DNA from: Alloascoidea hylecoeti
Taxonomy: Eukaryota
NCBI GenBank assembly: GCA_001600815.1
Contig: BCKZ01000014.1
Span: 186,001 to 250,000 of the forward strand
DNA length: 64,000 nucleotides
Direction: 5' to 3'
Part shown: in pieces, positions 1,245 to 50,920 of the stretch
How positions within the stretch are numbered: the stretch's first letter is position 1
How the letters are laid out: each line of letters starts with the position of its first letter
The notes under the pieces: model-generated
Databases searched by the model: none
The model's input: the letters and a program-made list of their open reading frames with translations, nothing else
What the model was told of the DNA's origin: nothing
Position numbers and translations under genes: made by a program

Positions 1245-1452
1245 TGTATATTGTTTACAGCTGAACATAAATTAAAGTTTCCGTATTGTTTGTGTTTTGT
1301 TCTATTGATAACCATGTTCAATAATAAATTTTTATCGTGAGTGTAATTCTAAGACCGGCCGTGTATGTACACTGTATAACATTTACCCTTATTTCGACTC
1401 CGTCTCTTTTCCCCTCCATCGAAAAATAGATCCATTCCTGAAAACTGCTAAT

Positions 1453-4065
1453 ATGGTCTACTCACATGAAAATGGTTCTTCAGGTAGCTCTCGCACAACA
1501 ATCCAACAGGCACCGATGGGTGATTCGCTTGGTAAGTCCCTAGAACAGATAGAATCTTTGGACCCTGCGCTTGCTCCTGCTGTTACTCTTCTATCCGTTC
1601 ATAGTAGACGTAAATATCATGGGAATTACTTTAAATTTCTACACGAATTAAAACCAGATGGAAAACCAGCTGATAAAATCTGGAAAGAGGTCTATGGGAA
1701 TTTGATAGGTACTCAACTAGCTATTTATGACGCTTCCAAAGTAGTGGATCTTGGCGCAGGCCAGTTGAAATACTCCGAAAAGCCTATTTATATTAATTTC
1801 ACAGATTCTTCATTTCAACCTTTATCAATTGCAGGTGATAATAATACAATGGTTGTAGCAACAACTCTTAAAAATCGTTATTTATTACAATTTTCAACTT
1901 CTTTAGAATTTAATACTTGGCATTCTATTTTTAGATTATCAACTTTTGAATATACTTCCTTACAAGAGGCTTATACTGCTTCATTATTATCAAGTAAAGG
2001 TGCAAAACTAAATGATATTAGTGTTCTTTTAGCTGAGTCTAAATTCAAACATGAAGAATGGATAAGTGTTAGATTTGGTTCAGGTATGCCATGGAAAAGA
2101 TGTTATGCAGTTGTTAGTCCACCAGAAGGGAAAAGTTCTAAAAAGAAAGGTTTAAAAAAAGGAAAAATTCAATTATATGAAAATCAAAAGAAATCAAAAA
2201 AGGGTTTAATTGCAACTATTGTTGATGCTTCTGCTGCATATGCAATATATCCTGAAGTACCGGTATTAATTGATTCATCAACAATTATAAAAATTGAAGG
2301 TTCGGTTGTTTTTAATATTAAAGAACCATCAACTGATTCATCAATTTTTATTATGCCTGAACAACATCCAGCTGTTATGGGCTATGAAACATTAATTCGT
2401 TTTTTAATTCCAATATTTGATTCGTTTCATTTATATGGAAGACCAAAACATTTAATTGCAAATAAAACTGATATTAATTCATTATTATTTGGATTACCTG
2501 TTCTACCTAAAGCAGAATACCTTGAGCCAAAAGATTTAGATAATATTTCATTTTCTACTACATGTCTAACTTGGAGCCCATTAGAATGGAGAATGCAGAT
2601 TAAATTGATTTTAAAAGATAAGGTTGACAAAGGATACCAAGGCTGTGGAAGTCTTGCTGCTTCATTTGCACAAGAAGATTCATTTCAATCACCACCACCC
2701 GTTTTAACACCTAATCCTAATTCACATGCAGCACCACCTTTAACTCCTTCTTATTTGCCAACTCCTGTAATGGGTGAGAATACACATACAGATGAAACTC
2801 AATCATCTAATTTATCACCAAAACCACAATTTCAAAATCCATCAAATTTATTACCAGCACCACAATCTCAATTACGTCCACAGTATGGTAATGCAAGAAC
2901 TGGTGGCCACTCCCCATTATCTGAAATTTACATGAGTTATAGAAGAAGTGGCGTTAATCAAGGTGATACATCAGATGAAAATGAAGATAATACATCATTA
3001 CACAATACTACAGATACCAATAATGAAAATCCAAAACAGGTGATTCCTCCTATTGTTATTAATGATCATGATACTAACTCATTAAACGAACCAATGCGTG
3101 GTCTAAATATCACAACAGTTCCAGATAATAACGATAATAAAAACATAATTGATGAAGATATTTTTAATCCAACTTATAATATTCATTCAAGATCTATAAA
3201 TGATGAAGATGATGGTGGACTAACTTCTCCAATATCAGATATAGTACCTCATAATAGTGGTTCTACATATCAAACATCTGTTGTTTCTGAGAAAGAGAAA
3301 CTACAAAATTGGCCCTCTAATAATCCTATTGAACAAAATCAAGGACAGAATATTGATGAACCCAATGGAAACATAAATAACATTATCGTTACGAAGGTCG
3401 ATTATCAAAATGGAAGAATCCAAAGCCCTTCAATAGCTAAGAATCCATTTCCTCCTGTAGTTAACAATCACAATCATAACTTAGATCAACAACAACGACG
3501 CCGACCTCCACCTAATCCTTCGCCCGCAGGACAGTACCCACCATCGCACTCACAAGGACGACCACAGGGACCTTCAGTTCCAGGGCAATATCCTCAATCA
3601 CAAGGGCAAGTCATACAAGGAGTACCTCAAGGTTCATCTTCTCAACCACCACCACGGAGACATCCACTTCATCAAGGACATGAAGGTCAAGGCTACCACC
3701 AACCCTTTGACCAAACACAGCAGTATAACCCGCGTTATCCAGGATCACCTCCACAACAACAACAACAACAACAACATCAAAATCCTCGTGTACAACAGCA
3801 ACATCACCACCAGCATCCTCATGTACAACAACTTCATCAAAATCAAAATCAAAATCAAAATCAAAATCAAGATCCAGAATACCAACAACGGCCACATATT
3901 CAACAACGGCAATCATCAAGGCCTCGTCCTTACCCTAATGCTCCTGATGCTGTTCCATATCCTACACAAACACCATTAAGCTCCCAAGGAATGGATGGAA
4001 TGGTTCCAATGGCAAGTCCTAATGGACAAAGAGGTCACAAGACGTATCGTAATATGTTGATTTAA
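1453..4065 (+). CDS. Skg3/Caf120-family PH-domain protein with Gln/Pro-rich C-terminus
   Basis: 870-aa ORF; motifs WKEVYGNLIGTQL, RLSTFEYTSLQEAYTASLL, EEWISVRFGSGMPWKRCYAVV, MPEQHPAVMGYETLIRFLIP, FHLYGRP. Confidence 0.8.
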   Translation: MVYSHENGSSGSSRTTIQQAPMGDSLGKSLEQIESLDPALAPAVTLLSVHSRRKYHGNYFKFLHELKPDGKPADKIWKEVYGNLIGTQLAIYDASKVVDLGAGQLKYSEKPIYINFTDSSFQPLSIAGDNNTMVVATTLKNRYLLQFSTSLEFNTWHSIFRLSTFEYTSLQEAYTASLLSSKGAKLNDISVLLAESKFKHEEWISVRFGSGMPWKRCYAVVSPPEGKSSKKKGLKKGKIQLYENQKKSKKGLIATIVDASAAYAIYPEVPVLIDSSTIIKIEGSVVFNIKEPSTDSSIFIMPEQHPAVMGYETLIRFLIPIFDSFHLYGRPKHLIANKTDINSLLFGLPVLPKAEYLEPKDLDNISFSTTCLTWSPLEWRMQIKLILKDKVDKGYQGCGSLAASFAQEDSFQSPPPVLTPNPNSHAAPPLTPSYLPTPVMGENTHTDETQSSNLSPKPQFQNPSNLLPAPQSQLRPQYGNARTGGHSPLSEIYMSYRRSGVNQGDTSDENEDNTSLHNTTDTNNENPKQVIPPIVINDHDTNSLNEPMRGLNITTVPDNNDNKNIIDEDIFNPTYNIHSRSINDEDDGGLTSPISDIVPHNSGSTYQTSVVSEKEKLQNWPSNNPIEQNQGQNIDEPNGNINNIIVTKVDYQNGRIQSPSIAKNPFPPVVNNHNHNLDQQQRRRPPPNPSPAGQYPPSHSQGRPQGPSVPGQYPQSQGQVIQGVPQGSSSQPPPRRHPLHQGHEGQGYHQPFDQTQQYNPRYPGSPPQQQQQQQHQNPRVQQQHHHQHPHVQQLHQNQNQNQNQNQDPEYQQRPHIQQRQSSRPRPYPNAPDAVPYPTQTPLSSQGMDGMVPMASPNGQRGHKTYRNMLI

Positions 4066-5284: not shown

Positions 5285-6916
5285 TTACTCTCGATCTTCA
5301 GTTAATCTCAATACTTTAAAAGGAAGTGATTCCACAGTAGGTTTAGTACTAGTATTGACATTACTATCACGATATTTATCCATAAATTCTTGATGAAATT
5401 TAATCCATCTATCAATATATTCTGTTCCTGGTGCTAAAAATGTAGTTCTAAAATGATAAGTACCTTCAACTTGTCCAAATCCACTACCAGGAACAACACA
5501 AATACCCGTATTATTCAATAATTCCATACAATATAATTCATCTGGTTCTTCATTAGATGATTTTGCAGCATTGATTGCTTTTTTAGGTAAATCAATCTTA
5601 GGGAATAAATACATTGCTCCTTGAGGTTCTTGAACCTCAATGCCTTCCATAGATTTGAATGCTTTATATAAAGCCTGTGATCTTACTTTCAATGATTCAT
5701 AGATTGTATTGAATTCAGTTGTATATTGTTCATAGGATTCATCTCCTTTTTTTGGAGGATTGACCATCAATTCAACTAATGCTTGACCTGTAACAACAGG
5801 GCAAAGAGAGATTGAAACTAGTTTGTATAGAACGGCTATAACTGCAGGATCAAATCCAACTAATTCCATATAACCACCTCTTTGACCACATTCACCAGAC
5901 ATACCTTTTGAAACAGAATGTAAAGAAGCTAATTGAACATCATCATATCTACCTGGGAATTGTGATTGTAATTGTCTTAAAATTTTCTTAAACGAGTGAA
6001 ATTTTGCACCAGAAAATACATTTTCTTGATAAACTTCGTCAGCAATAATAATTAAAGAATTTTTTGCAGCAATATCAATAATTCTTGCAATATCATCATG
6101 AGATAAACAAGCACCGGTTGGATTACCAGGATTTATAACAACAACTGCTTTTAAATCAATATTATCAAGTTTTGATTTTGAAATAACAGTTTCAACATAT
6201 GATGGATCAGTTGCCCAACCTTTTGCTTCATCTAAATAATAAGGAACAGGTATGGTGTTAGTTAAAGCCAAAGTTGCAGTATATAAAGGATACTGAGGTA
6301 TTGGGATCATAAATCCAGAGTTTGAAGAGGAAGCCAAAACTGAGATGAGATAAGAAACAGCTTGAGAAGCACCACCAGTTAAGAAGATATCATTTGGAGA
6401 AGCTTCAAATCCATCTCTCTGTGTTATAAATTGAGCAACTGATTTTCTGACGTATGGAACACCTTGTGAATGAGAATAAGCACCAACAGAACCAACGTTT
6501 TCTAATAAGATTTTAGCTCTTTTGATAACATCACTTTTGTATAATTTTTTAACTTCAGCACTTTCAAGCAGATCAGGATTTTGTAACAAGGACAAAACTT
6601 GTCGATAGAAGGATATTGGCTTCTGTTTTAATTGCTGAGGATTTCCAATATTACAGTTAATAATGGAGTTGAAAGGTAAAGAAGATGGGTCAGTTGCTAA
6701 CTGTTCTCGCAGTTCCTCGGCCCTTATTGCTATCGCACCTCTAACAGCATATTTAGCAGCAACGACATGAGCATTTAAATCCTTGACAGATAGCTTTGTT
6801 GTTTTTTGTTGGGAAGCAGGAGAGTTTAAAAAAGAATAAGAATGAGAAACCATTATTTTTTCACAATTTTTACGCGAAGAAATTAAAATAGGAGAAATTG
6901 GGATATTTGATGCCAT
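5285..6916 (-). CDS. ALT1: Alanine aminotransferase, copy A (26-aa C-terminal extension)
   Basis: YAVRG, NIGNPQQL, GAYSHSQGVP, INPGNPTG, ADEVYQ, PLP-lysine motif SLHSVSKG.GECGQRGGY. Confidence 0.93.
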   Translation of the reverse strand: MASNIPISPILISSRKNCEKIMVSHSYSFLNSPASQQKTTKLSVKDLNAHVVAAKYAVRGAIAIRAEELREQLATDPSSLPFNSIINCNIGNPQQLKQKPISFYRQVLSLLQNPDLLESAEVKKLYKSDVIKRAKILLENVGSVGAYSHSQGVPYVRKSVAQFITQRDGFEASPNDIFLTGGASQAVSYLISVLASSSNSGFMIPIPQYPLYTATLALTNTIPVPYYLDEAKGWATDPSYVETVISKSKLDNIDLKAVVVINPGNPTGACLSHDDIARIIDIAAKNSLIIIADEVYQENVFSGAKFHSFKKILRQLQSQFPGRYDDVQLASLHSVSKGMSGECGQRGGYMELVGFDPAVIAVLYKLVSISLCPVVTGQALVELMVNPPKKGDESYEQYTTEFNTIYESLKVRSQALYKAFKSMEGIEVQEPQGAMYLFPKIDLPKKAINAAKSSNEEPDELYCMELLNNTGICVVPGSGFGQVEGTYHFRTTFLAPGTEYIDRWIKFHQEFMDKYRDSNVNTSTKPTVESLPFKVLRLTEDRE

Positions 6917-7316
6917 TTTATAATTTTAATTTTCCTTTTTTTTTTCGATCTTCGAATTCGCTAAATAATGTCATCCGACCTTTTCCTTGAGTTACGCCGG
7001 CATGCTGAAATGTTCACCCAGCCACTTTTGTTTTTCTCCACATTTTACAAGTTTTTATTTTGATCGACTTTTGTCTGCTGAAAAATTAAGTTTACAGATT
7101 TATACCCGCATATTTCGCCTATGCACATTGTAATTGTATAATTTCTGACTTATATAATATACTGTATCATTAAATAATATTATCTCCTTCAATGGAGTCA
7201 ACCTATATAAGCTTCTAAAATACCCCTTGATTGTCTTTTGATTTGACCTCAGTTTGTCGCTATAACCATTCTGACTGCTAAAATTTCATAACTCTCAATA
7301 TTCTTTGCTAAAAAAT

Positions 7317-8816
7317 ATGGTTCAAGTAAAGTTCTCTTCATTGTCCAATTCACGCCCAGCGGATGACCCAAAAAGATTATCTGTCAAGGATTTGAACACT
7401 CATGTTGTCGCTGCAAAGTATGCCGTAAGAGGTAAATTGGCAATAAGAGCTGAAGAGCTTCGTGAACAACTAGTAACTGATCCTGGTTCTTTACCTTTCG
7501 ACTCAATTATTAATTGTAATATCGGAAATCCCCAGCAATTGAAACAGAAACCAATATCCTTTTTTAGAGAAGTTTTGTCCTTGTTACAAAACCCTCAGCT
7601 AATTTTAAACGAAAAGTCTTTGAATCTTATAAAAGAGATTTATAATAAAGATGTTATTGAAAGGGCTTTGAATGTTTTAAAACAAGTTAATTCTGTTGGC
7701 GCTTACTCTCATTCACAAGGTGTTCCATACGTCAGAAAAGCAGTTGCTGAATTTATATCAAAAAGAGATGGATTTGAAGCTTCTCCAAATGATATCTTCT
7801 TAACTGGTGGTGCTTCTCAAGCTGTTTCTTATTTAATATCGTCACTTGTTACATCTCCTGAATCAGGACTTTTAATTCCAATTCCTCAATATCCTTTATA
7901 TACTGCAACTTTAGCATTAACAAATTCAACTGTTGTTCCTTATTATTTAGATGAAGAAAAAGGTTGGGCAACTGATCCAAAACAAATTGAATCAATTATT
8001 GTAAATGAAAAATCAAAAGGAATTGATTTAAAAGCAATTGTTGTTATAAATCCTGGTAATCCGACTGGTGCTTGTTTATCGATTGATAATATTGCTGAAA
8101 TTATTGATATTGCTGCAAGGCATTCATTACTTATAATTGCTGATGAAGTTTATCAAGTTAATGTTTATTATGGTGAATTTCATTCATTTAAAAAAGTTTT
8201 AAGACAAGTTCAATTACAATTCCCTTCAAAATATGATCATGTTCAACTAGCTTCTTTACATTCTGTTTCAAAAGGTGTTTCTGGTGAATGTGGTCAAAGA
8301 GGTGGTTATATGGAATTAGTTGGATTTGATCCTGCAGTTATAGCCGTTCTATACAAACTAGTTTCAATCTCTCTTTGCCCTGTTGTTACGGGTCAAGCAT
8401 TAGTTGAATTAATGGTCAATCCTCCAAAAAAAGGAGATGAATCCTATGAACAATATACAACTGAATTCAATACAATCTATGAATCATTGAAAGTAAGATC
8501 ACAGGCTTTATATAAAGCATTCAAATCTATGGAAGGCATTGAGGTTCAAGAACCTCAAGGAGCAATGTATTTATTCCCTAAGATTGATTTACCTAAAAAA
8601 GCAATCAATGCTGCAAAATCATCTAATGAAGAACCAGATGAATTATATTGTATGGAATTATTGAATAATACGGGTATTTGTGTTGTTCCTGGTAGTGGAT
8701 TTGGACAAGTTGAAGGTACTTATCATTTTAGAACTACATTTTTAGCACCAGGAACAGAGTATATTGATAGATGGATTAAATTCCATGAAGGATTTATGGA
8801 TAAATATCGTGATTAG
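7317..8816 (+). CDS. ALT1: Alanine aminotransferase, copy B (divergently transcribed paralog)
   Basis: Same ALT motifs; first ATG at 7317 (ORF track start 7305 is TTG). Confidence 0.93.
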   Translation: MVQVKFSSLSNSRPADDPKRLSVKDLNTHVVAAKYAVRGKLAIRAEELREQLVTDPGSLPFDSIINCNIGNPQQLKQKPISFFREVLSLLQNPQLILNEKSLNLIKEIYNKDVIERALNVLKQVNSVGAYSHSQGVPYVRKAVAEFISKRDGFEASPNDIFLTGGASQAVSYLISSLVTSPESGLLIPIPQYPLYTATLALTNSTVVPYYLDEEKGWATDPKQIESIIVNEKSKGIDLKAIVVINPGNPTGACLSIDNIAEIIDIAARHSLLIIADEVYQVNVYYGEFHSFKKVLRQVQLQFPSKYDHVQLASLHSVSKGVSGECGQRGGYMELVGFDPAVIAVLYKLVSISLCPVVTGQALVELMVNPPKKGDESYEQYTTEFNTIYESLKVRSQALYKAFKSMEGIEVQEPQGAMYLFPKIDLPKKAINAAKSSNEEPDELYCMELLNNTGICVVPGSGFGQVEGTYHFRTTFLAPGTEYIDRWIKFHEGFMDKYRD

Positions 8817-22406: not shown

Positions 22407-23861
22407 TCAAAGAGCATCCACAATAAAATTATCATGAAGAGAAGAATAGGATTCAAAAAACGATTGAAATAATTTTATAGATAATTCAATATCATGACTA
22501 CCACATGTTTCTCTAATTGAATGCATACTAAGTTGTGGAGCGCCAATATCAATTGTTCTTAATCCAAGTTTACTTGCTATAATTGGGCCAATTGTTGACC
22601 CACATGGACTATCATTTTTAACAACAAATAATTGTAAAGGAACTTTAACTTTTTCAGCAACTTCTTTCAATAATATAATACCTGGTGAATTAGTTGCATA
22701 TCTTTGATTGGCATTAATTTTAATAACTGGTCCTTTGTTTAGTTGAGGTTGATGGTTACTTTCATAGTTTGATACATAATTTGGATGAACTCCATGAGCC
22801 ATATCAGAAGAAACTAATAAACTTTTCTGAATAGTTTGTTTAACAAATGATTCAGGAACTGGATGATATGGGTCATCATTATATTCACCTTTTAAAGTTA
22901 CAATTCTTTCAAGAATATCAGGTAGAAAACTTGAATCAGCACCTTGAGCACTTGCAGAACCAATTTCTTCATGATCAAACAGACAAACTAATTGAATACC
23001 ATTGTCTTTATCTAAGTTGCTTGTACTTTGAACAAGACCTGTAATTGCAGTATAACATGATGTTAAGTTGTCTAATCTTGGTGAAAAAATAAACTCTTGA
23101 CTTAATCCACCCAATTGACTTGGTTGAGTATCATATAGAACAAGCTCGAAATCTTCAATCTCTGGCACGGAAACTCCAATATCATCAGCAATAACATCTA
23201 AAAGATGTGGATTGTGACGGTCGGTTATTTTTGCCAACGCATGAAATTCATCTTCATTTTCTGGTTCTTCTTTGCCTTTATTATTATTCAATATCGATTC
23301 AGCTAACCCCGCAATAGGATATAATTGCGATTCTTTATTGAAAACAAATTTAGTATTAACTTCACGATCTAAATGAATGGCTAAAGTTGGTATACGTAAA
23401 ATTGGTCGTTCGATTTTACATAACTTTGGTGAAATTTTACCAGATTCCTTATCTTTTACTAAAACTCTCCCGGCAACACTTAAATCTCTATCAAACCAAG
23501 AATGCCAAATTCCACCACCATAAACTTCAACACCTACTTGAAGATACCCTGCAGCGGTCTTTTTGGAATTTGGTTTTATTCTTAAAGTTGGGGAATCAGT
23601 GTGAGCACCAACGATAGAAACTCCATTACCTGGCTCCCATTTACCACCAACGGTGAATGAAATAATACTTGAACCATTTCTTGTCACAAAATATTTATTA
23701 CCTTTTATAATTTTACCTGCCCATTGTTCGTGTTCACTTAATTCAGTAAAGCCTTTTGTTTTAAGAAGTTGTTTTACATTTTGAACGGCATGATAAGGGG
23801 TAGGAGAAGCATTGATAAAAGAGAGGAAATCGTTGGCGTATGACAAGGCAGAAGTAGACAT
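22407..23861 (-). CDS. APE4: Aspartyl aminopeptidase (peptidase M18)
   Basis: SPTPYHAV, GAHTDSP, WFDRDL, RLDNL, FDHEEIGS, SDMAH, CGSTIGP, LSMHSIRE; likely ATG 23861 (alternative 23891). Confidence 0.92.
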   Translation of the reverse strand: MSTSALSYANDFLSFINASPTPYHAVQNVKQLLKTKGFTELSEHEQWAGKIIKGNKYFVTRNGSSIISFTVGGKWEPGNGVSIVGAHTDSPTLRIKPNSKKTAAGYLQVGVEVYGGGIWHSWFDRDLSVAGRVLVKDKESGKISPKLCKIERPILRIPTLAIHLDREVNTKFVFNKESQLYPIAGLAESILNNNKGKEEPENEDEFHALAKITDRHNPHLLDVIADDIGVSVPEIEDFELVLYDTQPSQLGGLSQEFIFSPRLDNLTSCYTAITGLVQSTSNLDKDNGIQLVCLFDHEEIGSASAQGADSSFLPDILERIVTLKGEYNDDPYHPVPESFVKQTIQKSLLVSSDMAHGVHPNYVSNYESNHQPQLNKGPVIKINANQRYATNSPGIILLKEVAEKVKVPLQLFVVKNDSPCGSTIGPIIASKLGLRTIDIGAPQLSMHSIRETCGSHDIELSIKLFQSFFESYSSLHDNFIVDAL

Positions 23862-24548
23862 TTTAAGTAACTTATAATTGAGCTTGTTCATGGAAAAGAA
23901 GAAGAAAAGTGTGTTTTTAAAGAATCGGTTTAAAATATTTAAGTTTGATGCTGAGTCATCCAAATCTCATATGATAACAATTAAAGCCTTATGGATGTTT
24001 GGTAAAGTCTTTCGTGTTGCTAGTATTTTGCATACGTAGTTAATTATGGTGGATATCTGAGAATAAAATTCTTTCATATTTAATCATCATCTAATAGCTA
24101 GAGATTGAGTTAAAAATGAATAATCTGTCTTAGCTTCAAAAAAACCTTCCATGATCACAAATCCAGTTAATAATTCTGAAGTAATGTTATACCGGTAATT
24201 AATGAAAACCATACACAAACACAATATGAAAAAGACTCTTCTTTTTTCTTAACACCAAATTTATTCTTATTATAGTATAGGGGATAAATATGTTATCATT
24301 CAAGGTATTTTCATATAGTGTTTTCCAGTCAATTCCGGAGCACGGTGAGTCTCCATATCTTATATTATTTTCAATATAAATAGGCCTTTCTTTCTCTTCA
24401 ACCTTTTTATATAATTTCCGATTAAAACTTCCAACCAAAAACTATTAATTGGGGAAATCCCAGTCTTACTAAGCGTGAGTGTGGAGAAATTATAAAATAT
24501 CACTTTTTGTCTTAGGATGAAGTTATGCTCTCGAAATTCCACCTAACT

Positions 24549-30961: not shown

Positions 30962-32872
30962 TTATGTTTGGATTCCAAGTCTCAATGGAAGTGTTTGCTC
31001 TTGGGAATAACTGGGATCATCAACATTATTCAATAACTGTTGCTGATTGTTATAACCGTTAGCATCGCCATTATCAGGTATATACTGAGCCTCTGATTGT
31101 TGCTCATTATAAGTATAATTAGCATCATAAGAATATCCCTGATTTATATGGGGATTGTTTTCAGGTTTTCTTCTTTTGGGGATCGAGATCTTATTTCCGT
31201 CAGCAGTGACGTCATTTTGAATAGGTGAGCTGATGAAATTATTAACAGAAGGAGTTTGTCGAAACGATTGGTTAGATTCAGTTGTAGTTGTTAAAGTACT
31301 ACCTGAGCTTGAATATTCAACTGCAAGAGGTGAGCTTACTTGCCTTTTTGAGTTTTTTCTGTTAAGATTTATAGTTTGGTTGTTGTATGAAATTTCAGGT
31401 GCTGCAATTGCATTATTACTAGAGCCTGGCCGTAAAGCAACGTTTCCATAACTGTCTAAAAATAGATCATCTGAGCCATCATCACCACCCGTGTACTCCT
31501 GATTATGAGTTAAACTTCCAATAAAGGAAGATCTCAAGTCACCACTACCACGCCATCCTTTTTTCATTTTAGCTGCTAATTGGGCTTTCAGTGCATCAAA
31601 CCATTCCCATCTATTCCATTTATCGAAACCTTGCGAACTCCCATTCCTCGCAATAACACTTACCGCATCATCAACTGTTAAATATTCGGTTGCTGGAAGT
31701 TGTGGTAAACCGAAAAATAAAGAACTTTCAGATGTTCTACTTGAATCCAAGTGATCTGGTCTTCCGTATAATAAGAATGCATCATAAAGAGGTAGTAAAA
31801 ACCGTATTAATGTATCGTAGCCAGGAACAGCAGCATGTGGATCGGGCATAATTTCCAAAACATTATGATTAGTACCATCTTTACAAATAATATCACCTTC
31901 AATTTTAAGTAGATTTGATGATTCTATTAATACAGAACTTGAAGGATACATTGCAGAACATGAATAAATGAATTTAACTTCAGCAATTAAATCCTTTTTC
32001 TTTTCTTTTTCATTTTTAAATATTTTAAAGGAACCAATTTTTCTTTTTTTACTTCTAATTGAAGATTTTGATGGTTCAATAATGACAAAACAATGAATCC
32101 ATTTACCACCACCAGATCCAAAACGTAAATTAACCCAATTTTTAACTAAAAATCTTGATCCTGCTAATATTGTTTTAATATCACTTATCATAATACCTTT
32201 TGTTGCTAATAATGAAGCTGTATATGCTTCACTTAATTTAATATTTTCAAAACTTGAAAGTCTTAAGCTTGCATGCCATCTTTCCCATGTTTTCTCGTCA
32301 TCAAAAAGTAAATAATAGCGAGTAGTAGATATCGTTGAAATACATAAAACATTAGAAAGAAGTTGATTATCAGACGTCGTCAAATTTTTATAGGGTTTTA
32401 CTGTAATATCGACAACATTTGCAAAAATAGGTTTAGGTAAGGCATCTGAACTGATTGATAAATCACAGCCAGATAGCCGACCAAATCCTTCAACCCAGCC
32501 TTCTTTTGAACCTTCCTTTAACACCGACAACGATCCTTCAATATATATCCTACTTTGTTGAGCGGCAATGATAGTCAATGTAGGAATGAGCTTCTTTGGA
32601 GTGTCTTCCGGAATATCCCAAGCAGAACCACTGGTCCAAGCGGCAGATTTTGATTTATAATGATTTGGTAAAAAAATGGAATTCCGGGATCTTCTTGAGT
32701 TTGAACGAGGTCTAAAAGCCGAAGCAGGCAAAGAAGCATGACGATTGAGCCGTTGATAATTTGCAGGAAGTGCTATTTGGGGCTGACTGTCATTAGAAGA
32801 GGAAATGGCCGACAAGGAGGTTCTTGATGCATAGGTAGACGATTGTGAGGAGGAGGCTCTTGATGGAATCAT
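30962..32872 (-). CDS. Second Skg3/Caf120-family PH-domain protein
   Basis: LRLSSFENIKLSEAYTASLL, WVNLRFGSG, MPDPHAAVPGYDTLIRFLLPLYDAFLLYGRP align with the 1453-4065 protein. Confidence 0.8.
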   Translation of the reverse strand: MIPSRASSSQSSTYASRTSLSAISSSNDSQPQIALPANYQRLNRHASLPASAFRPRSNSRRSRNSIFLPNHYKSKSAAWTSGSAWDIPEDTPKKLIPTLTIIAAQQSRIYIEGSLSVLKEGSKEGWVEGFGRLSGCDLSISSDALPKPIFANVVDITVKPYKNLTTSDNQLLSNVLCISTISTTRYYLLFDDEKTWERWHASLRLSSFENIKLSEAYTASLLATKGIMISDIKTILAGSRFLVKNWVNLRFGSGGGKWIHCFVIIEPSKSSIRSKKRKIGSFKIFKNEKEKKKDLIAEVKFIYSCSAMYPSSSVLIESSNLLKIEGDIICKDGTNHNVLEIMPDPHAAVPGYDTLIRFLLPLYDAFLLYGRPDHLDSSRTSESSLFFGLPQLPATEYLTVDDAVSVIARNGSSQGFDKWNRWEWFDALKAQLAAKMKKGWRGSGDLRSSFIGSLTHNQEYTGGDDGSDDLFLDSYGNVALRPGSSNNAIAAPEISYNNQTINLNRKNSKRQVSSPLAVEYSSSGSTLTTTTESNQSFRQTPSVNNFISSPIQNDVTADGNKISIPKRRKPENNPHINQGYSYDANYTYNEQQSEAQYIPDNGDANGYNNQQQLLNNVDDPSYSQEQTLPLRLGIQT

Positions 32873-34348
32873 AATGAAGAATGCTTATTTGGAAATTTGA
32901 AAAGAAAAACGATTTTCTTAGTTTATATATAAAAGACCCTTTGTAACTTATAAGCTTTTAGGTTTTGGTAGGCGGCTGCGGCTTCTGCGGATCAAGAGTG
33001 TTTAAGTATTGGTGACGCATCATGCACTGCGACCAAATTGCCAAAATCTGATAAAAGGATCTTGCATTCTGTATAGCCATTACACCTGACATTACATATT
33101 TATATGAAGTCAGTTAACAGCAGCAGAACAATGTATTTACAAAATTAGTACTGCTTTTTTGCAATTACAATTATATTGCTCGATACCGAATCGATTATCC
33201 CAAGAGTTCGGGAGGCTGATGAAGAATAGTTGCTATAGTAACGTTGGTGAGTTGGATTCTGGCAATTGTTTCAGTGCAGTGGCATCAACAATTCTGGCTA
33301 TAGTTAAATAATATAAGCTTCTAATCCAGAACCGCTGATCATGATTCAATGAGAGAAAGGCAAGAATAATAAAGTTAACTTTTGCATTACATTCCCTTAT
33401 TGTTATTGTATTGTTAAGGTTTGCAATTGTGCCGGATCCTATAATTTATAATCATACTACATTATATAGTTTAAATTTCAAGCCATGAACAGATAGTAAT
33501 ATGTTATTATTATATGTCTTATCGAGATTCAAGATCATTAACAAATTTAGGATCTTTCTTGAAAAATTAATATAGTGAAGAAAAAATATTTATCCTGATA
33601 CACATGAACCTGACATCCGCATAAATTATCATCTATTAAAAATTACGTAGATGCAAGTTGGTTGTTTTATGGTTCTTTTTTCATTGTTGTTAATGAAGAG
33701 TAAAAAGACCATACACATGAAAGGACTTTGATTTGATATGATGTTACTAGTTTCGTGCAACGGTATGATTATCAACATTAACAAACGTCGATATTTAACT
33801 AACATAGATGGTTTTAAATATGTTTTATGATGTTTTACATACCATTTTGGAATTAACGGTTTCTATGTTTTGCCGCTTGAGTTGGTATGATAATATTAAA
33901 TGCGACGAAATCATCTATGCGTCTACATAATACCTGCATAATTATAAATATATTCAGTTGCGGTACTAATTTAATTGGATATGATCTAAAGAATAAACAA
34001 TATTTGTAATCATGTTAACGTTGGATTCATAATATCATATCATGAATTGTTTTGTCTTCATATCTGACTGACTGTAAAGTTATAAGGGCAAGTGGGGTAC
34101 AAACAGCGTGCTACCAACAGCAGAACACATATCATAAGAAACACAAGAACTAAAAGGCATTTTAAAATTTATCAATTTTATTAGATACTATGATTATCTT
34201 AGGTGAGACACGGGAGAATTTGGTATTTTCTCTTTTAAAGATTGTACTACAAGTATTTGGGAATTTTGGGGTATGGAATTTTGAGATGATTTTCGGAACT
34301 CGCGGTTTGTACCACATTTACCGTGCCGTATAAAGTGTGTGCACGTTT

Positions 34349-39318: not shown

Positions 39319-39892
39319 AATACCAAATCTCGACTAACCAATGAAGTATAAATTACCTAAAATTTTCTAGATGAACACTGGTGGTTTAAATTTTTAAAAG
39401 TCGTATGCATCAAAAGGTTAGGAGTTAATTGGTTTATAGTTTTACATTTGCATTTATATTTATATTTATATTTATATATGCTCTCAAACATCTATAAAGT
39501 TGTATGTAGATACCTTCACAGGTGAATAAGATGCCGTTTGTTTGGATTTATAATTATAACCGTTTTTGATTTCATAATCCACCTTTTTTACTACGTATTT
39601 CAATGGAAAATAACATTAATACAGAGGGGCTAGTTTTTTATTGAATCATCCTTACACCCATCGGCCACCAACGGAAAAAAATCCAACACAATCGTAACCC
39701 GGCTAGTTCAGTCACTATTTGAGAATTCGTATTTCTTCAGTTCTTCAACGAATATAACACTCCCCTATAATCTCTTACTCTAGTGCTTAAATTACAAAAT
39801 ATTATATTTTGGATTCATTAGGTGTTTTAAGCAGAGGCAAAAACAAATAAACCCATATCAACGGAAAATAAATTTAAAATAGCAACAAGAAG

Positions 39893-41181
39893 ATGGTCGA
39901 ACGAGGACCCGATTTTTGGCTTGAACAAGTAAAGAAATGTCGATCATTACCGGAATCTGAAATGAAAATGTTATGTGAAATGGTTAAAGAGCTATTGATG
40001 GAAGGTATGATATTTTATTAAAGATCCTCGACAAATATCAACGAGCTATCGATATCGTTGACATCACCATTCAAGTTTTGGCTAATACGAAATTTTTTTG
40101 ATTTCAGAATCAAATATTCAACCTGTTAAATCTCCGGTTACAGTGTGTGGGTAAGTTTTTCAGCGATCTAACACCATATTATTGAATATGTATACTAATG
40201 ATTTTTATAGTGGTAAGTACAAAATGGATGCTGAGATTGTCTATAAAATTATGTGAACTAATATTTTTTGGTTAGATATTCATGGGCAATTCCACGATTT
40301 ATTGGAATTATTTAGAATCAGTGGCGGCTTACCTGATTCAATAAATTACATCTTCTTGGGAGATTATGTCGATAGAGGATATTTCAGTTTAGAAACATTT
40401 ACATTATTAATGGTATTAAAGGCAAAGTAAGCAGACAAAATAAATATTTCGTTGATATGAAAAATTCATTGCTAATGATGAATATATAATAGATATCCAC
40501 AACGAATTACGTTAGTTCGAGGGAATCACGAAACTAGACAGATCACTCAAATTTATGGATTTTTTGGTATGTCATACTAGTCATAATTAGTTCTCGGAAA
40601 CTAATAACTAACGAAAACATGTACATCTAGAGGAATGTCTTACAAAGTATGGAAGCACGACAGTATGGAAATATTGCTGTCAAGTTTTTGATTTCTTAAC
40701 ATTGGCTGCTATAATAGACGGAAGAATTTTATGTGTACATGGTGGTCTTTCTCCCGAAATCCGTATGTTGGATCAGATTAGTGTTCTTTCGAGAGCACAA
40801 GAGGTTCCACATGAAGGTGGGTTCTCTGATCTTGTTTGGTCTGACCCAGATAATGTTGATACATGGGCAGTTTCACCTCGAGGAGCCGGTTGGCTGTTTG
40901 GAGCTAGGGTTGCCCGTGAATTTAATCATGTCAATAATTTAAGTCTGATTTCAAGGGCCCATCAATTAGTTATGGAAGGTTTCAGGTATCATTTTGAAGA
41001 AAAGGATGTTGTTACAGTCTGGTCGGCACCCAATTATTGTTATAGATGTGGTAATGTTGCCAGTGTCATGAAGATTGGAGAGGACCTTGTTCCCAAATTT
41101 AAGATATTCAGTGCCGTTCCTGATGATATGAACGCTCGGATTGCACCACAGAAGACACAGAGGAGTGAATATTTCTTGTGA
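39893..41181 (+). CDS. SIT4: PP6/Sit4 Ser/Thr phosphatase, 6 exons (39893-40004, 40108-40150, 40211-40212, 40276-40426, 40493-40566, 40631-41181; 310 aa)
   Basis: Spliced product [11 protein letters not shown]...[14 protein letters not shown]...GDYVDRG...RGNHE...[11 protein letters not shown]...YFL; all five introns GT-AG with CTAAY branch motifs. Confidence 0.93.
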
Positions 41182-41277
41182 TTTGGTATTTGTTTTGTGT
41201 ATTGTGTATGGGTGTAATACTTTCTAAATTTCATGCTAAAGTGAATCAACTTCTCTGTAACCTAATTATAATTAAGA

Positions 41278-43636
41278 ATGGAAGATCCAGAAGAACGTCC
41301 CGGCCAACATCCAGACGAACCTCCGAGGAAGAGGAGTGCCACTTCAGGTATTTCTTTTATTTCTCCTTTTCGAGTGATTTTTTCCTTTTCATTTTCATAT
41401 TCTAACATTTCACATTTGAGGTAGCATGGTGAGTTATAATTATGACCATAAAAATATTCGTCAGCGCCTAACTATTATAGTTCAACATGCCATATACGAG
41501 GGATAATTTGTGAGTACAATTAAATTGTTGTTATCGACTTCCTGACGGTGGTTTCTAACTATGTATTTAATATAGGCGATAATTGGCAGCCTAGTTGCAA
41601 TGTAAGCCAATCTGACATCAAAAGTGGAGTTAGTATAACATAATGACTGGTACTAATATCTGTACAGAACTGTCGAGAAGGAAACAGGCTCGGCCGTTGG
41701 GAATACTCAGTAAGATTTCTTGAACCTGAAATAGAGGCCAATCATCATTTAATCAGTGTACCCCTTACTGAATCAAGTATGTGTTATTGGATTGCTGTTA
41801 TTACTATGACTTTGAACTTTCTGAACTGACAAGCGTCTAGCAAAAATCATCGATTTATCATTCCTTACAGTATCGAAGTACTTACCTATGGGTAGCGAGG
41901 GGCTTGAAGCTTTTAGAAATGCGAACTCTTATATTCCAAAGTCACACAGACCGGTCGAACACAAACTTACTTCCTCCGGCATGATCACAACCCGATCACA
42001 TATATTCACTGAAATTGTAAACCCACCAATAAATGATTTACAAACTGCAACTTTCGTGCGGTGCTTTTTAGACAACATCGCTCTTACATATGATATGTTT
42101 AATTCCAGAAACATCTTTACACAACTTGCTTTGCCATTGGCAAGGACAGAACCATTATTGATGCATGCTATATTAATGTGTGGTGCGGCATCTTATTATA
42201 AAACTAACAGGAAGAGGGAAAATACAACTGGATTACATATACCAATTCATCAAGAGGACCCAAGAATTTCAGAAGGGTATTATCGACGGATGCTTATAAT
42301 AAAACAAAAAAATGCTTGTATTAACATGGAAGCAAAATGCATGGCATATTTATTCATGATTACTTATCATTTCATAAAGTCAGAACCATTAAAACGAGAG
42401 GTTTTCTTGGAACTTTATCAACTAATCATTAAATTCCACTGGGAAAAAGATATTAAAGAGGGCCAATTTCCTGTCAATTCAATGGTTATTGATGCTTGTT
42501 TCTGGACGCTAATCGCTTTGGATTTTTTTACATCATTTTCTCAAGATATTCCTCCATCTATTGATCCTGCTGTGTGGGGTCCTGTACTGAAAATGCATGA
42601 CATACCCAAAAAAGCAAAAGAAATTTGGTGGGTTCGATTTGGCCTTTATGCCAATCTAAAAGTCAACGGCTTCAAATATAAATACGTAAAAGATTCAGAC
42701 TTTGAACCTAAAGACCAATTTTCTCAAGAGTGGACTGTTTTGGCTGATGCAATCTCACTGGCTGAGTCTTGTAATCCATCTGTTTTAATGCCAATTGTTA
42801 GCACAACTGACTATAAACATTTTTCTCTATCTCAAATATCAGAACATTCAATATATCCTGCTGTGGCCTCTCTTGAGCAAAAAGTGTATCCTTCAATTTT
42901 ATACTCATCAACTCTTGCTACTTTAGTCAGGATATTGCATTCTACTTTAATCATTGAAACTAACACTTGGCCTTCTTATAAAAATAATAATTTATTGACA
43001 TCTTTGTTTCACTCCCATTCTGTAGCTCCTGTTTCTATTTATGCTACTTTAAACGTATTTTTTGGAATGTTAACTTTCATAAAAGATACTAGAGTTGGAA
43101 TGATTTTAATACCGGCTGTATTTGCTTCAAACCAATATTTATTGACAAACGAAGAAAAAGAAGCAGTTAAAAATTATATGGAAGAAGTTTTAAATGAATT
43201 TCATAGTGAAGGCCATTCAAGATATTTATTATATGATCCACTGCCAAATGATACTATTTCAAGAATTATACTGGCAGATCGTCGAAAAAGTGCGATAGAA
43301 GAAATGTATTTACAAAATATTGAGGACAAACTAATGGAAATGAAAAAAAAACGATCTCCATCATCAGGAACGTTTCAATATCAAATGTGGCTAACTCGAT
43401 TCGGGATTAACAGTAGACGCGACCCCCTCCAGAATGCGCTACGAGTACCACCGGTTTCACTTCATCTTTCACAAATAATAAATGATGTTGATCGGCAGCA
43501 TAAGATTTTATTTAATCGAACTATTCGATATCGACAATTACTAACACAGTGTACCGAACTTCGGCAACAGCGATGTTTACCTTCAATAGCAGCAACTCCT
43601 CAGATTCAACTCCAATCATTGGAACAACAATCTTAA
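41278..43636 (+). CDS. Zn(II)2Cys6-type transcription factor, 6 exons (41278-41347, 41425-41428, 41481-41509, 41576-41601, 41668-41776, 41841-43636; 677 aa)
   Basis: Splicing gives RKRSATSACSTCHIRGIICDNWQPSCNNCREGNRLGRW in frame with the 582-aa ORF, which carries a fungal TF-like central region (NIFTQLALPLARTEPLLMHAILMCGA). Confidence 0.75.
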
Positions 43637-45715: not shown

Positions 45716-48700
45716 CTAGTTTGTTGACTCTTTCATAATATTATCAATAATTGGATGCTTCTTTAATAAAGACTCTGGACTTGGGCGATACCTAGGAACG
45801 AGTTTCTTATCAATTGAATTTTGTTTATTGGTCTTTTGACTTTTCAAAGTTCTACTCCCTTTAGGAGAAGCTAATACTGGTGAAAGATTTAGAACTTTGT
45901 AGAGCTCCAATGCATTTGGTGGTAGTTGATACAGCCAATCATTTTCCTTAATAACATTCAAGAATGTCTTTAACATCTCTAACGTTTCCAAAGTCTTCTT
46001 AGAACCAACAATAATTAGTTTACTTTTCGCTCTAGTAATTGCGACATTCAATCTTCTCCAATCTCTTAATAAGTCACCAACAAGATGTTTATCGTTAGAT
46101 CTAACCAAAGATATAATGACACATTCTTTGTCTGTGCCTTGGAACTTATCCGCCGTCATAATTTGTAAACCTTTGTGCTGCCCAAGCATTTCATTGAGCA
46201 CCTTCAGCTGTTCTCTATAAACTGAAAGAACTCCAATTGATTCTGGAGCAACATCACACAAAAATAATGTCTCAACAAGACATTTTATGATCTTTGCTTC
46301 CACAGAATTACTATATCCATCCTTTTTCCGTTCTTCAAGTCCAGGAAGTTTATCCGTATCAAGAAATACAACTTTTGACTGTTCATTCAAAACATATTTC
46401 ATCCAATCTATTTCTTGTAAATATGTTTCGCCTTGTAAATAAATCTGACTAGCTTTCTTAATACTAGGAATTTTAAAGTTTTGTTCAGCGACCTTTTCTG
46501 TACCACATTTTAATTCTCCTTCATAAATTAAAGTGTTTGCTAGTATAACAATATCATTGCACATACGATATTGATATGATAAATTTGTCACAGCTTCTGG
46601 ATGATCATCTGCTAACATCTTAAATAAACTTAAATCTAAACCACCACTCTTGGCTTCTGGATTTTTCACCAATGGAGTTAATTGATTAGGATCACCAACT
46701 AAAACAAACCTGTCACAAAAACGTAAAGGCCCAATACAAAAAGGTAAAGTGATCATACTAGCTTCATCAACGATACAATAATCAAAATGCCTTTTATTGA
46801 AAAGAAAGTGCTGAATTCCCATCACTGTTGATCCAACGATTGGTGGTTTGTAATAAATATCCTCTAATTCTTGTTGATTTTTTGGGGTTGTTTTTTCAGT
46901 TCTACCAGGTATAAACCTTTGAATTAAAGGATGAACATTTTTGAAATGACCAACTCGAACTATTCCTAATTTATCGTCTTTCAGCTTTAACAAAATATTA
47001 TCAACTGCAGCATGGGTATATGAAGTTAGCAAGACTGATTTATTACGAGCTACTAACATCCTAACCAATTGAGCAATCGTCGTTGTTTTACCTGTCCCCG
47101 GCATGCCTAAAAGCAGTGAATAATCTTTACTTCTCATAACCATATCAAATGCTTTAACTTGATCATCGTTGAACGTATGATTTTTAGGCAATTCATAATA
47201 ATCTGCTTTCTTTCCAAACCTTGGCGGAACTTTATCTATAATCAATTTTGACCTCATTTTATCTCCATCAGGTAAAAGATAATTTATAATATTATACCTT
47301 GCAATTCCCATTCTTTGCATCTCATCCTGCTTATCTATTCTGTAAGTAATTCCAGGTAAATCTTTGATTTTTTTTAAGTTGATCTGTGATCCTTTAAGTT
47401 GTGAAACATGAAGCATGCCTTTGAATTGTTGATTGTCTTTTGAATTGTAACCAGGTAATCGAACTATTGATTGTGTTAATGGTTTATTTGTTGATATTGT
47501 AATTGATTGGGAGGTAATTGTCTTTACGAAGCCATTACAAAGTGCAAAGTGACCTTCTTCATCAGAAATGTGAACATGATCAAGCAAATTTATTTGAGTA
47601 TCTGTGAACAGAGTCGTAATAGGAGATGATGCATTTCTTATAAAAGTATAGTCTATACGACTGACCAATGGAATATCAGCTTCGTCATCCGTAGGTTGTA
47701 AGACCAAGTTTCCAATGCACCTAAATATTGTAAGTTAGAAAGAAACAAAATTGAGAGTAAAAAAAAGAAAAAGCATACCTTCCTGCAGCTTCCCTGACTT
47801 CACTTGTAGATATCCAAAGTTCTTTCAAAAATGTTCCCATGGTTGTTTCTTCCATGCTCAGTAGTTTATCATATTTATTGAAAAATTCTATGTATGGTTT
47901 ACTAGCATTTTGAGTAATTGAATTAAATTCTTCGATGCCAGAGCTTTCTGCATTACCATCCTCCAGTGCTTTATGATAAGTCATACATTCAGATATAGCA
48001 TAACAACTCTTGGCAGAACATGGTCCAACTGCTCTTAACATATCTGGAAGATTTCGATCTCCATTAACGAAAAAATATTTTGCAATTTTATTTCTTCCAA
48101 TTATTAAAGAACGTATTTCATGCCACATTTTAGGAATTTGTGTTGTTTGTTCAAGTTCAGAATAATATAGTAAAGAAAAACAAGTTTCAATATCATATCT
48201 ATCAAACAACAGTAGAGTATATAATAAAACCTGAGCTGAATGGGAAATATTCTGTGTCCGGCCAGTTTTGATTTCAAGTGGTACTAAAAAGTTACCAATT
48301 TCTCTGTTATTCACCTTTGCCTCAACAGTAACATCAATAATCCCTTTCAAACCAAACATTGGTGACCATATTTCTTCTTCAATATCGATTACTCTGTTAA
48401 TTGACAAATCAGATAACTCATTACTGCCTAGAACTGGCACCCGAACATTAGAATGTGAATATGCTGAAGTTCCAGTACCTAATTTAAACATTTTTGCTGC
48501 CCAATCCCTAAATTTTGGAAATTTTGGTCTAATGAAAGATGCAACTGAATCTTTTGTTTCGTTAATAAGCAAAATATTTAATAAATTTGAATCTAAATTT
48601 TCACCTAGTATTGCTTCCATATGATTATTTGAAAATGAATTGAGTTGAAGACAGCCTTGTATAATTTCGTGTATAATTGTACCATAAACAATATACTTAT

Positions 48701-50834
48701 TAACTTCTGATGGTAAAGAAATGCGTTGTTTTAAAACCGTTCTTCTTTCACAATGAAAAGATTCAGAAACTGTTGTAACTGGAATAAGTATATCAGGATG
48801 TAATACCAATAAATTTTGATGATCGTCAACAATGATTTCACTGGCTTTATTATCATCATAATCGCCCACTATATGAATAACATCTTTCGGTGATATCTCA
48901 AGCTGACACCATGAGTCTCTGAGAATAATCCTTTTAAAGAGTGCACCAGACATCTTAGCATTTAAAATCTTTTGTGGTTTCGTCCGATTTCCATTTATTG
49001 CAGCATCATCTTTAACATTTATAATCTGATACCGATGAAGATTCCTTCGTCTAAATGCTAGTGTCGTTAAGTCTTGTTGTTTATTTTTGTCGCTATTCCG
49101 TGAAGTTGTAGAAGTTGTTTCTGCCTTGAATATGGAAGAATGCCTCGTACTACTTCTTGTTGCGGGAGTATTTGCCGTACGTATTTTAGGTATCACTTGA
49201 GACTTTTCAAACTCATCGAGAAAATTATCAAGATCCTCTTGATTTTCATCACTTTCGGTTTCATTATCAAAATCATCAATTTCACAACTTGCTTTTGTAT
49301 TTTTATTTGTTTTTATGATAGTTTCTTTTTGTGGTGGAGGTAGTCGTGGTGGCAGTACAAAGTTTTGAATTTTTGGCGGATTCATATTCGTAGACATTAC
49401 AGAGGTCACAGTTCGCATAGAATCTGCTTCCAAATCATTTAAATCTAGAGATAGATCATCCAAATCATCATCAAAATCATATGAACTTGAACTGTTTGGC
49501 GCAGTATCTTTTGGTTGGGTTATATCTTTATCTATAATGTCGATCTTTTTTATTGGTGCTTGAGTTTGAATTTCAGATTCTATTAAATCTAATTGCTTAA
49601 AATCATATTCCTCATCGTCTTCAAATATGTCATCAAAATCAGATTCACCGGAATTGTTCTTCTTTTCTGAAAGTTTCGGCATCTCTTTAACTGTAGTATC
49701 CGATTGTGTTTGTGATGAATCTTTCTGACTACTTCGGTCAAGATTTGGCGAGGATGGTGGAAGAATTGTGGTACAATTTGGGTCTAACATAGAGATATCG
49801 TCCATTTCATTTTTATTATTGTCATTGATGTGATTAATCCTAGTTTCATTCTGTTGATAAAATGATAGATCATCAATTGATTGATCATTACTCTCAGAAT
49901 TTTCTATTTCATCCATTAAAGAGGATATATTCTCCTTCCCTGTCTTTTGATTGTAAATTTCAAGATCTGTCAATAGTCTTGAGCTTTTTGATTCTAATTG
50001 ATGCAAAAGATTTGTTTTCATTAAGGGACTTCCATAATTTTTATTTATAAACTCTCCTGATTCTAACCATGGTTTTGCAGTAGTCAAAGGAGTAGGAAAT
50101 GGTACTTTTTTTGAAGGGAGTCCGTAAATAGATTTTGATCTTTTAAATGATCTTGATCGTATACTTGAGTTTATATTTGACTTTTCGGGGGTAGTTTGTT
50201 CATAATTCGAATGGCTTCTCGATAATTTTCTATTTGCTGATTGAGAATTAGCCCTTGGAGACCAATTTTCAATTTTGGTATTATATTTCTTTGCTAGGGA
50301 ATTAACTGGATCATTTTCATCTTCAAATGGCACGGAAACCTGATTTTTTCTGCGAGCTGGAGTAATATAGTTTGAATTCCTATCTATTGTAATTGGAGAG
50401 GAGGAAGATATCATAGTTTTCCGCCTATTATCAACCGGATATTCCCAATAAACATGATCATCACTACTTGGATTTAACGCAATGGTTCTCTGTTTTGCAG
50501 GAGTTTTTAGATTCATATTTGTATTTGTGTTCGCATTTATGTTTTTGTTTTTGTTTTTGTACGTATTTGTGTTTGTGTTTGTGTAACTGCTGTCTATTGG
50601 ATCTGATGAAGGTTTGTTTTCATCAAGTCTATCTGTCGGAGTAAATGAGTAAAAACGTTTACTCTTTTGATTTAATTTTGCATTTGGTGGAGAGATCTCA
50701 GGAACAGATACATTCTTCTTATCTTGATTTAATTTGATCTTCTTCCTTTCATGGGATACGGGTTGAGGTAATCCTTTTGCAGTATCCCCTAGACTTATCA
50801 TCACTCTCTTATTTCCTCGGTTCATCGGACCCAT
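45716..50834 (-). CDS. DNA2: Dna2 nuclease/helicase (intron 47721-47778; ~1686 aa)
   Basis: Nuclease motifs DIEEEIWSPMFGLKGIIDVT, PLEIKTG, Fe-S cysteines; SF1 motifs GMPGTGKTT, IVDEAS, LVGDPNQL, QYRM, RRLNVAITRAK; a GTATGC...CTAAC...TAG intron joins the two ORFs in frame. Confidence 0.95.
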
Positions 50835-50920
50835 TGATATCTGAGATTATGTATAATCCCTCTAATTATGTTATTAAACAAATTGAATAATATATTGGGT
50901 GAAAACAATATGGCAAAAAT

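Follow-up and report, generated by a model that had tools for sequence, protein, structure and literature searches.

A probable two-nucleotide exon completes the catalytic GDIHG motif of a SIT4/PP6 phosphatase gene in a budding yeast

We analysed a 64,000-nucleotide (nt) stretch of the genome of Alloascoidea hylecoeti (GenBank assembly GCA_001600815.1, contig BCKZ01000014.1, positions 186,001 to 250,000 of the forward strand), hereafter called the window. Its + strand carries a six-exon gene at 39893-41181 which, with the reading frames read and joined, encodes a SIT4/PP6 phosphatase of 310 amino acids, and in which the predicted third exon consists of the two bases TG. The parts of the gene are as follows.

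39893-40004 (+): exon 1; ATG at 39893, ends in phase 1, N-terminus can be aligned with orthologues
40005-40107 (+): intron 1, 103 nt; GTATGA donor, GCTAAT branch site at 40081-40086, CAG acceptor
40108-40150 (+): exon 2, 43 nt; its final TGT GG is Cys plus two bases of the Gly codon
40151-40210 (+): intron 2, 60 nt; GTAAGT at 40151-40156, TACTAAT at 40193-40199 with branch A at 40198, AG at 40209-40210 (TATAG)
40211-40212 (+): predicted 2-nt micro-exon TG; base 3 of the Gly codon (GGT) and base 1 of the Asp codon (GAT) in GDIHG
40213-40275 (+): intron 3, 63 nt; GTAAGT at 40213-40218, AACTAAT at 40256-40262 with branch A at 40261, AG at 40274-40275 (TTAG)
40276-40426 (+): exon 4, 151 nt; starts AT ATT CAT GGG (remainder of Asp, then Ile-His-Gly) and holds the GDYVDRG motif
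40427-40492 (+): intron 4, 66 nt; GTAAGC donor, GCTAAT branch site, TAG acceptor
40493-40566 (+): exon 5, 74 nt; holds the GNHE motif
40567-40630 (+): intron 5, 64 nt; GTATGT donor, ACTAAT and ACTAAC branch sites, TAG acceptor
40631-41181 (+): exon 6; TGA stop at 41179-41181, protein end ...YFL

Joined, the six exons give a coding sequence of 933 nt, which is divisible by three and translates into 310 residues with YFL at the C-terminus. The Pfam family Metallophos (PF00149, calcineurin-like metallophosphoesterase) is matched by the open reading frame (ORF) of exon 6 at an E value of 1.1e-19 and by that of exon 4 (40257-40430) at 7e-08, and the nearest solved chains are PP2A catalytic subunits (E 1.2e-62). 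The best named matches of the C-terminal exon are the SIT4 proteins of Sugiyamaella lignohabitans (87%) and Saccharomycopsis crataegensis (86%). The spliced model aligns end to end with all nine SIT4/Ppe1 orthologues tested, at 72-85% identity (80-85% for those from Saccharomycotina) and without a gap at the junction. A preliminary description of this DNA had named the gene SIT4, and the best named matches together with the full-length identity to SIT4/Ppe1 proteins mark the predicted product as a SIT4/PP6 orthologue and not a PP2A, PP4 or PPG1 protein. The motifs GDxHG, GDxVDRG and GNHE are signatures of PPP phosphatases that hold metal ligands, among them the Asp and His of GDxHG. All three are found in the spliced model, GDIHG only if TG is kept.

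Without TG the frame shifts and the translated model reaches a stop 13 codons later. We enumerated all GT-AG, GC-AG and AT-AC single introns of at least 30 nt and found two that are in frame and free of stops, neither of which restores GDxHG: a GT-AG intron with a GTGGGT donor at 40147 puts Tyr in place of Cys-Gly-Asp, and an AT-AC intron loses conserved residues ahead of the motif. Enumeration of all GT-AG intron pairs around a middle exon of 1-30 nt gave four in-frame, stop-free solutions, of which the TG pair alone restores GDxHG. The preliminary description had placed TG between introns of 60 and 63 nt with full signals, and had held that only TG gives GDIHG and that skipping it shifts the frame. 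Read directly from the DNA, this layout is exact, and the enumeration and the translated model bear out the rest, with a GTAAGT donor, a CTAAT branch site and an AG in each of the two introns.

Donor, branch site and acceptor are complete in both introns that flank TG, and the two resemble the other introns of the gene. Each of the five introns has a GTAAGT, GTATGT, GTATGA or GTAAGC donor, a CTAAT or CTAAC branch box and an AG end, and introns 2-5 are alike in length (60-66 nt). The distance from donor to branch site is 47 nt in intron 2 and 47-48 nt across introns 2 and 3, compared with 44-48 nt in introns 4 and 5. In introns 2 and 3 the first AG past the branch box is the one used; it lies 12 nt after the branch A in the former and 14 nt in the latter. 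The site is free of N and of low-complexity runs. A strict search for two complete introns separated by 1-5 nt, run over both strands of the window, gives one match, the SIT4 locus, and matches 5 of 300 first-order Markov shuffles (0.017 per shuffle on average).

The 258 codons 3' of the micro-exon are conserved, which indicates purifying selection, and hence they must be read in the frame that includes TG; on the predicted structure they make sense only with two extra bases in the message. Of the explanations weighed for the site, we favour, with a probability of about 0.83, a genuine 2-nt coding exon (TG, 40211-40212) that is included constitutively and belongs to a SIT4/PP6 phosphatase gene still in function. 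Presence of TG in the mRNA, and its constitutive inclusion, are probable on this evidence. Contigs that match 39880-41200 in three metatranscriptome runs number 0, 2 and 0, the two being short pieces at 40960-41061 that represent conserved parts from other organisms and contain no joints.

The flanking introns would be ordinary short introns, each recognised by itself through intron definition, given that the introns of this gene are short and uniform and splice sites are then paired across introns. Recognition of each would proceed from the GTAAGT donor to the CTAAT branch site 47-48 nt on and to the first AG 12-14 nt past the branch. With only 2 nt between the intron 2 acceptor and the intron 3 donor, two spliceosomes could hardly be there together and removal is most likely sequential; introns 2 and 3 would be taken out in turn, as in recursive splicing, but with 2 nt left behind. 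Because both introns are complete in the primary transcript, either could be removed first, and the same mRNA, TGT GGT GAT ATT, would result from either order. Removal of intron 2 leaves positions -3 to -1 of the intron 3 donor as they were, GTG, and pairing with U1 at this donor would thus be unchanged. We found no unusual RNA structure that bridges the sites (minimum free energy -26.9 kcal/mol, z = -0.07). As for the origin of the arrangement, tandem duplication of an intron was considered and rejected, introns 2 and 3 being no more alike than shuffled controls (z = 1.2).

The corresponding site in other organisms was followed in the 120 best protein matches to the C-terminal exon and in 73 new proteins from a search with the N-terminus of Lipomyces tetrasporus. 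Among the former, 70 span the site, 66 of them intact and four broken exactly there; among the latter, 71 span it by pattern and all 71 are intact. In total, 137 of 141 SIT4/PP6 models are intact at the site, and the four broken ones are all four Lipomycetaceae clusters, no further cluster of this family being present among the 73 new proteins. The broken models belong to Dipodascopsis tothii (P0047, a cluster with 1 member sequence), L. tetrasporus (P0048, 6), L. starkeyi (P0052, 11) and L. oligophaga (P0073, 2). They lack the catalytic Asp of GDxHG, each by a different faulty splice solution. The L. oligophaga model reads Thr-Val-Tyr-Ile-His, exactly the peptide expected in the window from the one single GT-AG intron that keeps the frame; the L. 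tetrasporus model continues past Cys-Gly into what back-translates to a GTATGT donor directly after GG; and eight residues are cut out of the D. tothii model. A tiny exon or an unusual intron has probably misled the annotation of these models. The simplest cause that all could share is an upstream exon that ends in GG and a downstream exon that starts with AT, with the two missing bases located elsewhere, and we would give about two chances in three to a micro-exon conserved in Lipomycetaceae. If so, the structure would date to the base of the budding yeasts and would have been lost together with introns in most lineages.

Several points weigh against a 2-nt exon at this site or against its conservation. 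The conservation argument is built on mis-modelled proteins and not on DNA, and at least for L. starkeyi a plain single intron with a GTACGT donor could explain the model equally well. In a comparison with metagenomes, for which we kept 80 of 576 loci found, mostly not from budding yeasts, an intron between the Gly and Asp codons is present in 0 of the 77 loci that reach the site, and L001, the only close yeast among them, is uninterrupted there. Single-intron strings are not enriched in the window (31.6% G+C), with 27 observed compared with 20.7 +/- 5.1 in shuffles, and this places the weight on reading frame and homology and not on the signals alone. The support is drawn from DNA and protein sequence, and inclusion of TG in the mRNA is deduced from it. 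Finally, the data cover the 64-kb window, and a second, uninterrupted SIT4 copy may lie elsewhere in the genome.

The metagenome loci also contain a different feature. In 9 of 71 PP2A/PP6-like loci (L022, L025, L035, L036, L038, L041, L063, L077 and L079), (I/V)CGDI is immediately preceded by unrelated sequence or stops, consistent with an intron two to three codons before the site in the window, at a position that differs from it and is apparently widespread. Among the named proteins, about 40 N-terminal residues of the Sugiyamaella lignohabitans SIT4 model (P0001) cannot be aligned with other SIT4 proteins, while the remainder aligns; the public record seems to contain a wrongly modelled first exon or intron.

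To place the yeast we used the aspartyl aminopeptidase gene at 22407-23966, whose best match has 63% identity and whose budding-yeast matches all fall at 56-63%. In a quick single-gene tree of 31 rows (the window's own protein and 30 named proteins from the 120 matches listed), the window belongs neither to the Lipomycetaceae clade (support 100) nor to that of Sugiyamaella/Trichomonascus/Magnusiomyces; it branches as sister to the Pichia, Candida, Wickerhamomyces and Saccharomyces groups (Shimodaira-Hasegawa-like approximate likelihood ratio test, SH-aLRT, 92 and 95). With a one-gene tree as its basis, this shows what is predicted to be an isolated, intron-rich and AT-rich budding-yeast lineage without a close annotated relative. 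A bolder history can be drawn up, in which the 2-nt exon goes back to the common ancestor of budding yeasts, is still present in Lipomycetaceae and in this isolated lineage, was lost with introns elsewhere and has persisted inside the metal-binding catalytic motif over hundreds of millions of years, its inclusion being kinetically limiting so that skipping and nonsense-mediated decay (NMD) throttle SIT4 dosage in target of rapamycin (TOR) signalling. Taken as a whole, this account is unlikely.

The gene downstream of SIT4 (+ strand, start at 41278, main ORF at 41825-43636) has a probable exon of 4 nt, approximately 1.2 kb from TG. Its predicted first five exons (41278-41709) are all very short (70, 4, 29, 26 and 42 nt). 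The four bases CATG (41425-41428) stand between a TAG acceptor and a GTGAGT donor, and only keeping them produces the spacing C-x2-C-x6-C-x6-C-x2-C, similar to a zinc cluster, whereas an 8-nt alternative and skipping of the exon both run into stops. The predicted cluster is without the canonical sixth Cys, and the gene has few relatives (four besides itself at E up to 0.001). One distant homologue, P0315, has a basic stretch and a zinc cluster in the same arrangement at its start. A looser pattern of branch box, AG, 1-12 nt and donor has three matches in the window compared with 0.9 +/- 0.9 expected, two of which are the TG and CATG sites. The third (33239-33246, +; branch box, AG, 8 nt, GTGAGT, then another branch box and AG) lies in apparently non-coding DNA and probably arose by chance. 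A second ultra-short exon so close by makes tiny exons look like a trait of the genome and not a device specific to SIT4, and suggests that they are an ordinary feature of gene structure here.

Among the other explanations of the site, the one that survives best is an addition to a real 2-nt exon and not a replacement for it, and we consider it improbable. It holds that inclusion of TG is rate-limiting or condition-dependent, and that joining the donor at 40151 to the acceptor at 40275, as a 125-nt intron, yields a frameshifted, NMD-prone message that tunes SIT4 dosage. Such skipping is mechanically possible, since a span of 125 nt is within the range of the gene (intron 1 has 103 nt), and it leads to a premature stop. 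In plants, the introns that flank micro-exons are described as tending to be detained (PMC8831610), and a switch-like 20-nt micro-exon is reported from a Trichoderma transcription factor (PMC11121469). Against this, both introns carry consensus signals, the first-AG rule favours the productive sites, the RNA structure over the region is unremarkable (the z given above), and tiny exons seem to be generally tolerated in this genome, to judge by the one of 4 nt in the neighbouring gene. A switch-like micro-exon is one for which inclusion and exclusion both give usable products and which is used according to conditions; here exclusion leads to the stop 13 codons on.

The preliminary description had offered its own version of such regulation, a stwintron-like route in which a GTGGTA donor, formed after excision of the first intron, would delete the Gly alone, as a possible on/off switch for a TOR-pathway phosphatase. 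The GTGGTA is truly there in the sequence. Its positions +3 to +6 are G, G, T and A, compared with A, A/T, G and T/C/A in the donors of the gene; it agrees with the donor consensus only at GT and +3, has no G at +5 and would face competition from a perfect GTAAGT 3 nt further on, which argues against its use. Stwintrons are defined by an internal intron placed within a splice signal of the external one, whereas at SIT4 donor, branch site and acceptor are intact in both introns and no signal needs a prior excision. The data give no support to the switch either: the only realistic alternative to inclusion is skipping, whose product is a dead message, out of frame, and no second isoform, and neither loss of the Gly nor a frameshift has a plausible second function.

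A dead or dying gene copy is less probable again. The micro-exon would then be coincidental, a 2-nt frame defect within a single intron region of 125 nt, and the functional SIT4 would be elsewhere. AT-rich DNA is indeed rich in intron-like strings, and a further copy may lie outside the 64 kb covered here. However, all six exons are open, with 72-85% identity to orthologues over the full length, and complete signals are kept in all five introns. Coincidence would in addition need to have produced an AG, two bases and no more, both of the right identity, then a perfect GTAAGT and a well-spaced second branch site, which happens 0.017 times per shuffled window, and it would leave aside that the Lipomycetaceae models are in trouble at the same site.

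We give a slightly smaller chance to an error of sequencing or assembly, by which the 2-nt spacing would be an artefact and the true genome would hold one intron, or a pair of introns with a longer exon between them. The sequence does come from a single assembly, but an error would have to leave two perfect sets of signals and exactly the two bases needed, in a window without N or low-complexity runs at the site, and the resulting introns of 60 and 63 nt match the lengths of neighbouring introns. Finally, a single non-canonical intron of 123 nt (40152-40274, TA...TA) that joins TGT GGG to GAT ATT would fit arithmetically, in frame and with Cys-Gly-Asp-Ile encoded, to give the same protein without a micro-exon, but it is scarcely credible, as it leaves two full canonical signal sets inside it unexplained and its TA-TA termini are, to our knowledge, outside every known class of spliceosomal intron.

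The 2-nt exon favoured here has published counterparts. The preliminary description had called exons this small very rare, and the literature agrees: a constitutive 1-nt exon with support from expression assays or RNA is described for Arabidopsis APC11 (Guo & Liu 2015, PMC4674806) and for Fusarium CYP621A (Nelson & Syed 2026, PMC12940212), the one fungal case in the literature searched; the authors of the latter present it as the first known from a fungal gene and refer to exons of 2-5 bp in Arabidopsis, Drosophila and humans. As in those two accounts, the exon in SIT4 is ultra-short, lies between small canonical introns, contributes to a codon in a conserved motif, is essential for the frame and is of a kind missed by automatic annotation. 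Unlike them, with 1 nt and proof from expression or RNA-seq as presented there, the SIT4 exon has 2 nt, belongs to a PPP phosphatase of a budding-yeast lineage and is known here from sequence. For APC11 the authors proposed that adjacent sites lead to removal of the two introns in turn, and the same text reports that the intron downstream of a 9-nt exon in potato invertase is removed first (PMC4674806). In a search of literature outside subscription journals, we found, among the papers listed, none linking SIT4 or PP6 with micro-exons and, by title and abstract, none on nuclear ultra-short exons in budding yeasts. Exons of 1 to 5 bases have thus already been described in plants, animals and Fusarium, and the predicted 2-nt exon, itself credible, stands out by its place in a budding-yeast lineage and in a catalytic motif.

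Plant micro-exons of up to 15 nt are described as encoding key motifs, conserved for long periods and pervasively misannotated (Yu et al. 2022, PMC8831610). The four broken Lipomycetaceae models look like the same failure of annotation, although the plant work has RNA-seq support and the conservation in SIT4 is judged from faulty protein models. Standard gene finders are unable to call a 2-nt exon, and a SIT4 model made in the usual way for this genome would also lose the catalytic Asp. Intron-rich yeasts may hide further tiny exons, which is a warning for annotation. Exons of 1-2 bases are the lower limit for the spliceosome and very few are documented. If real, the exon of 2 nt would offer, in a yeast related to the best-studied splicing models, an easy system in which to study the use of adjacent splice sites in an intron-defined genome.

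Recursive splice sites of Drosophila and vertebrates are zero-length exons, with AG directly followed by GTAAGT, to which and then from which splicing takes place. The SIT4 site resembles them in that an acceptor adjoins a strong donor, but two coding bases separate AG from GT and are kept, the introns are of about 60 nt instead of tens of kilobases, and the downstream donor is complete beforehand. TG may still act in a two-step manner akin to a recursive splice site, a class that is mentioned in connection with APC11 (PMC4674806). Stwintrons are described from filamentous fungi and from Lipomyces, where the case reported is a reticulon-like gene (Flipphi, Fekete; PMC7138796). They share with the SIT4 site two contiguous U2-type introns, consecutive removal (as proposed above for SIT4) and a related yeast group, and differ from it, as described there, in the interrupted signal of the external intron, the two SIT4 introns being complete with an exon of 2 nt between them. 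Among published cases, Trichoderma virens Xlr2 comes closest to the switch idea and to the 4-nt exon in the zinc-cluster gene next door; in Xlr2 a 20-nt micro-exon within a functional domain was missed by the JGI model and is included in a condition-dependent manner, with two isoforms in RNA-seq (PMC11121469). Two protein isoforms are reported for Xlr2, whereas skipping of TG in SIT4 gives a frameshift only.

Three further features of the window are independent of SIT4. DNA2 (45716-50846, -) appears as two overlapping ORFs, the junction of which is an intron of approximately 56 nt near 47776-47721 (GTATGC, TTCTAAC, TTTAG) and not a frameshift. Two class I/II aminotransferase genes (5285-6925, -, and 7275-8816, +) lie side by side in divergent orientation and are possible local paralogues. 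The same may apply to two genes with a fungal PH-like domain (PF25381), located at 1312-4065 (+) and 30962-32884 (-).

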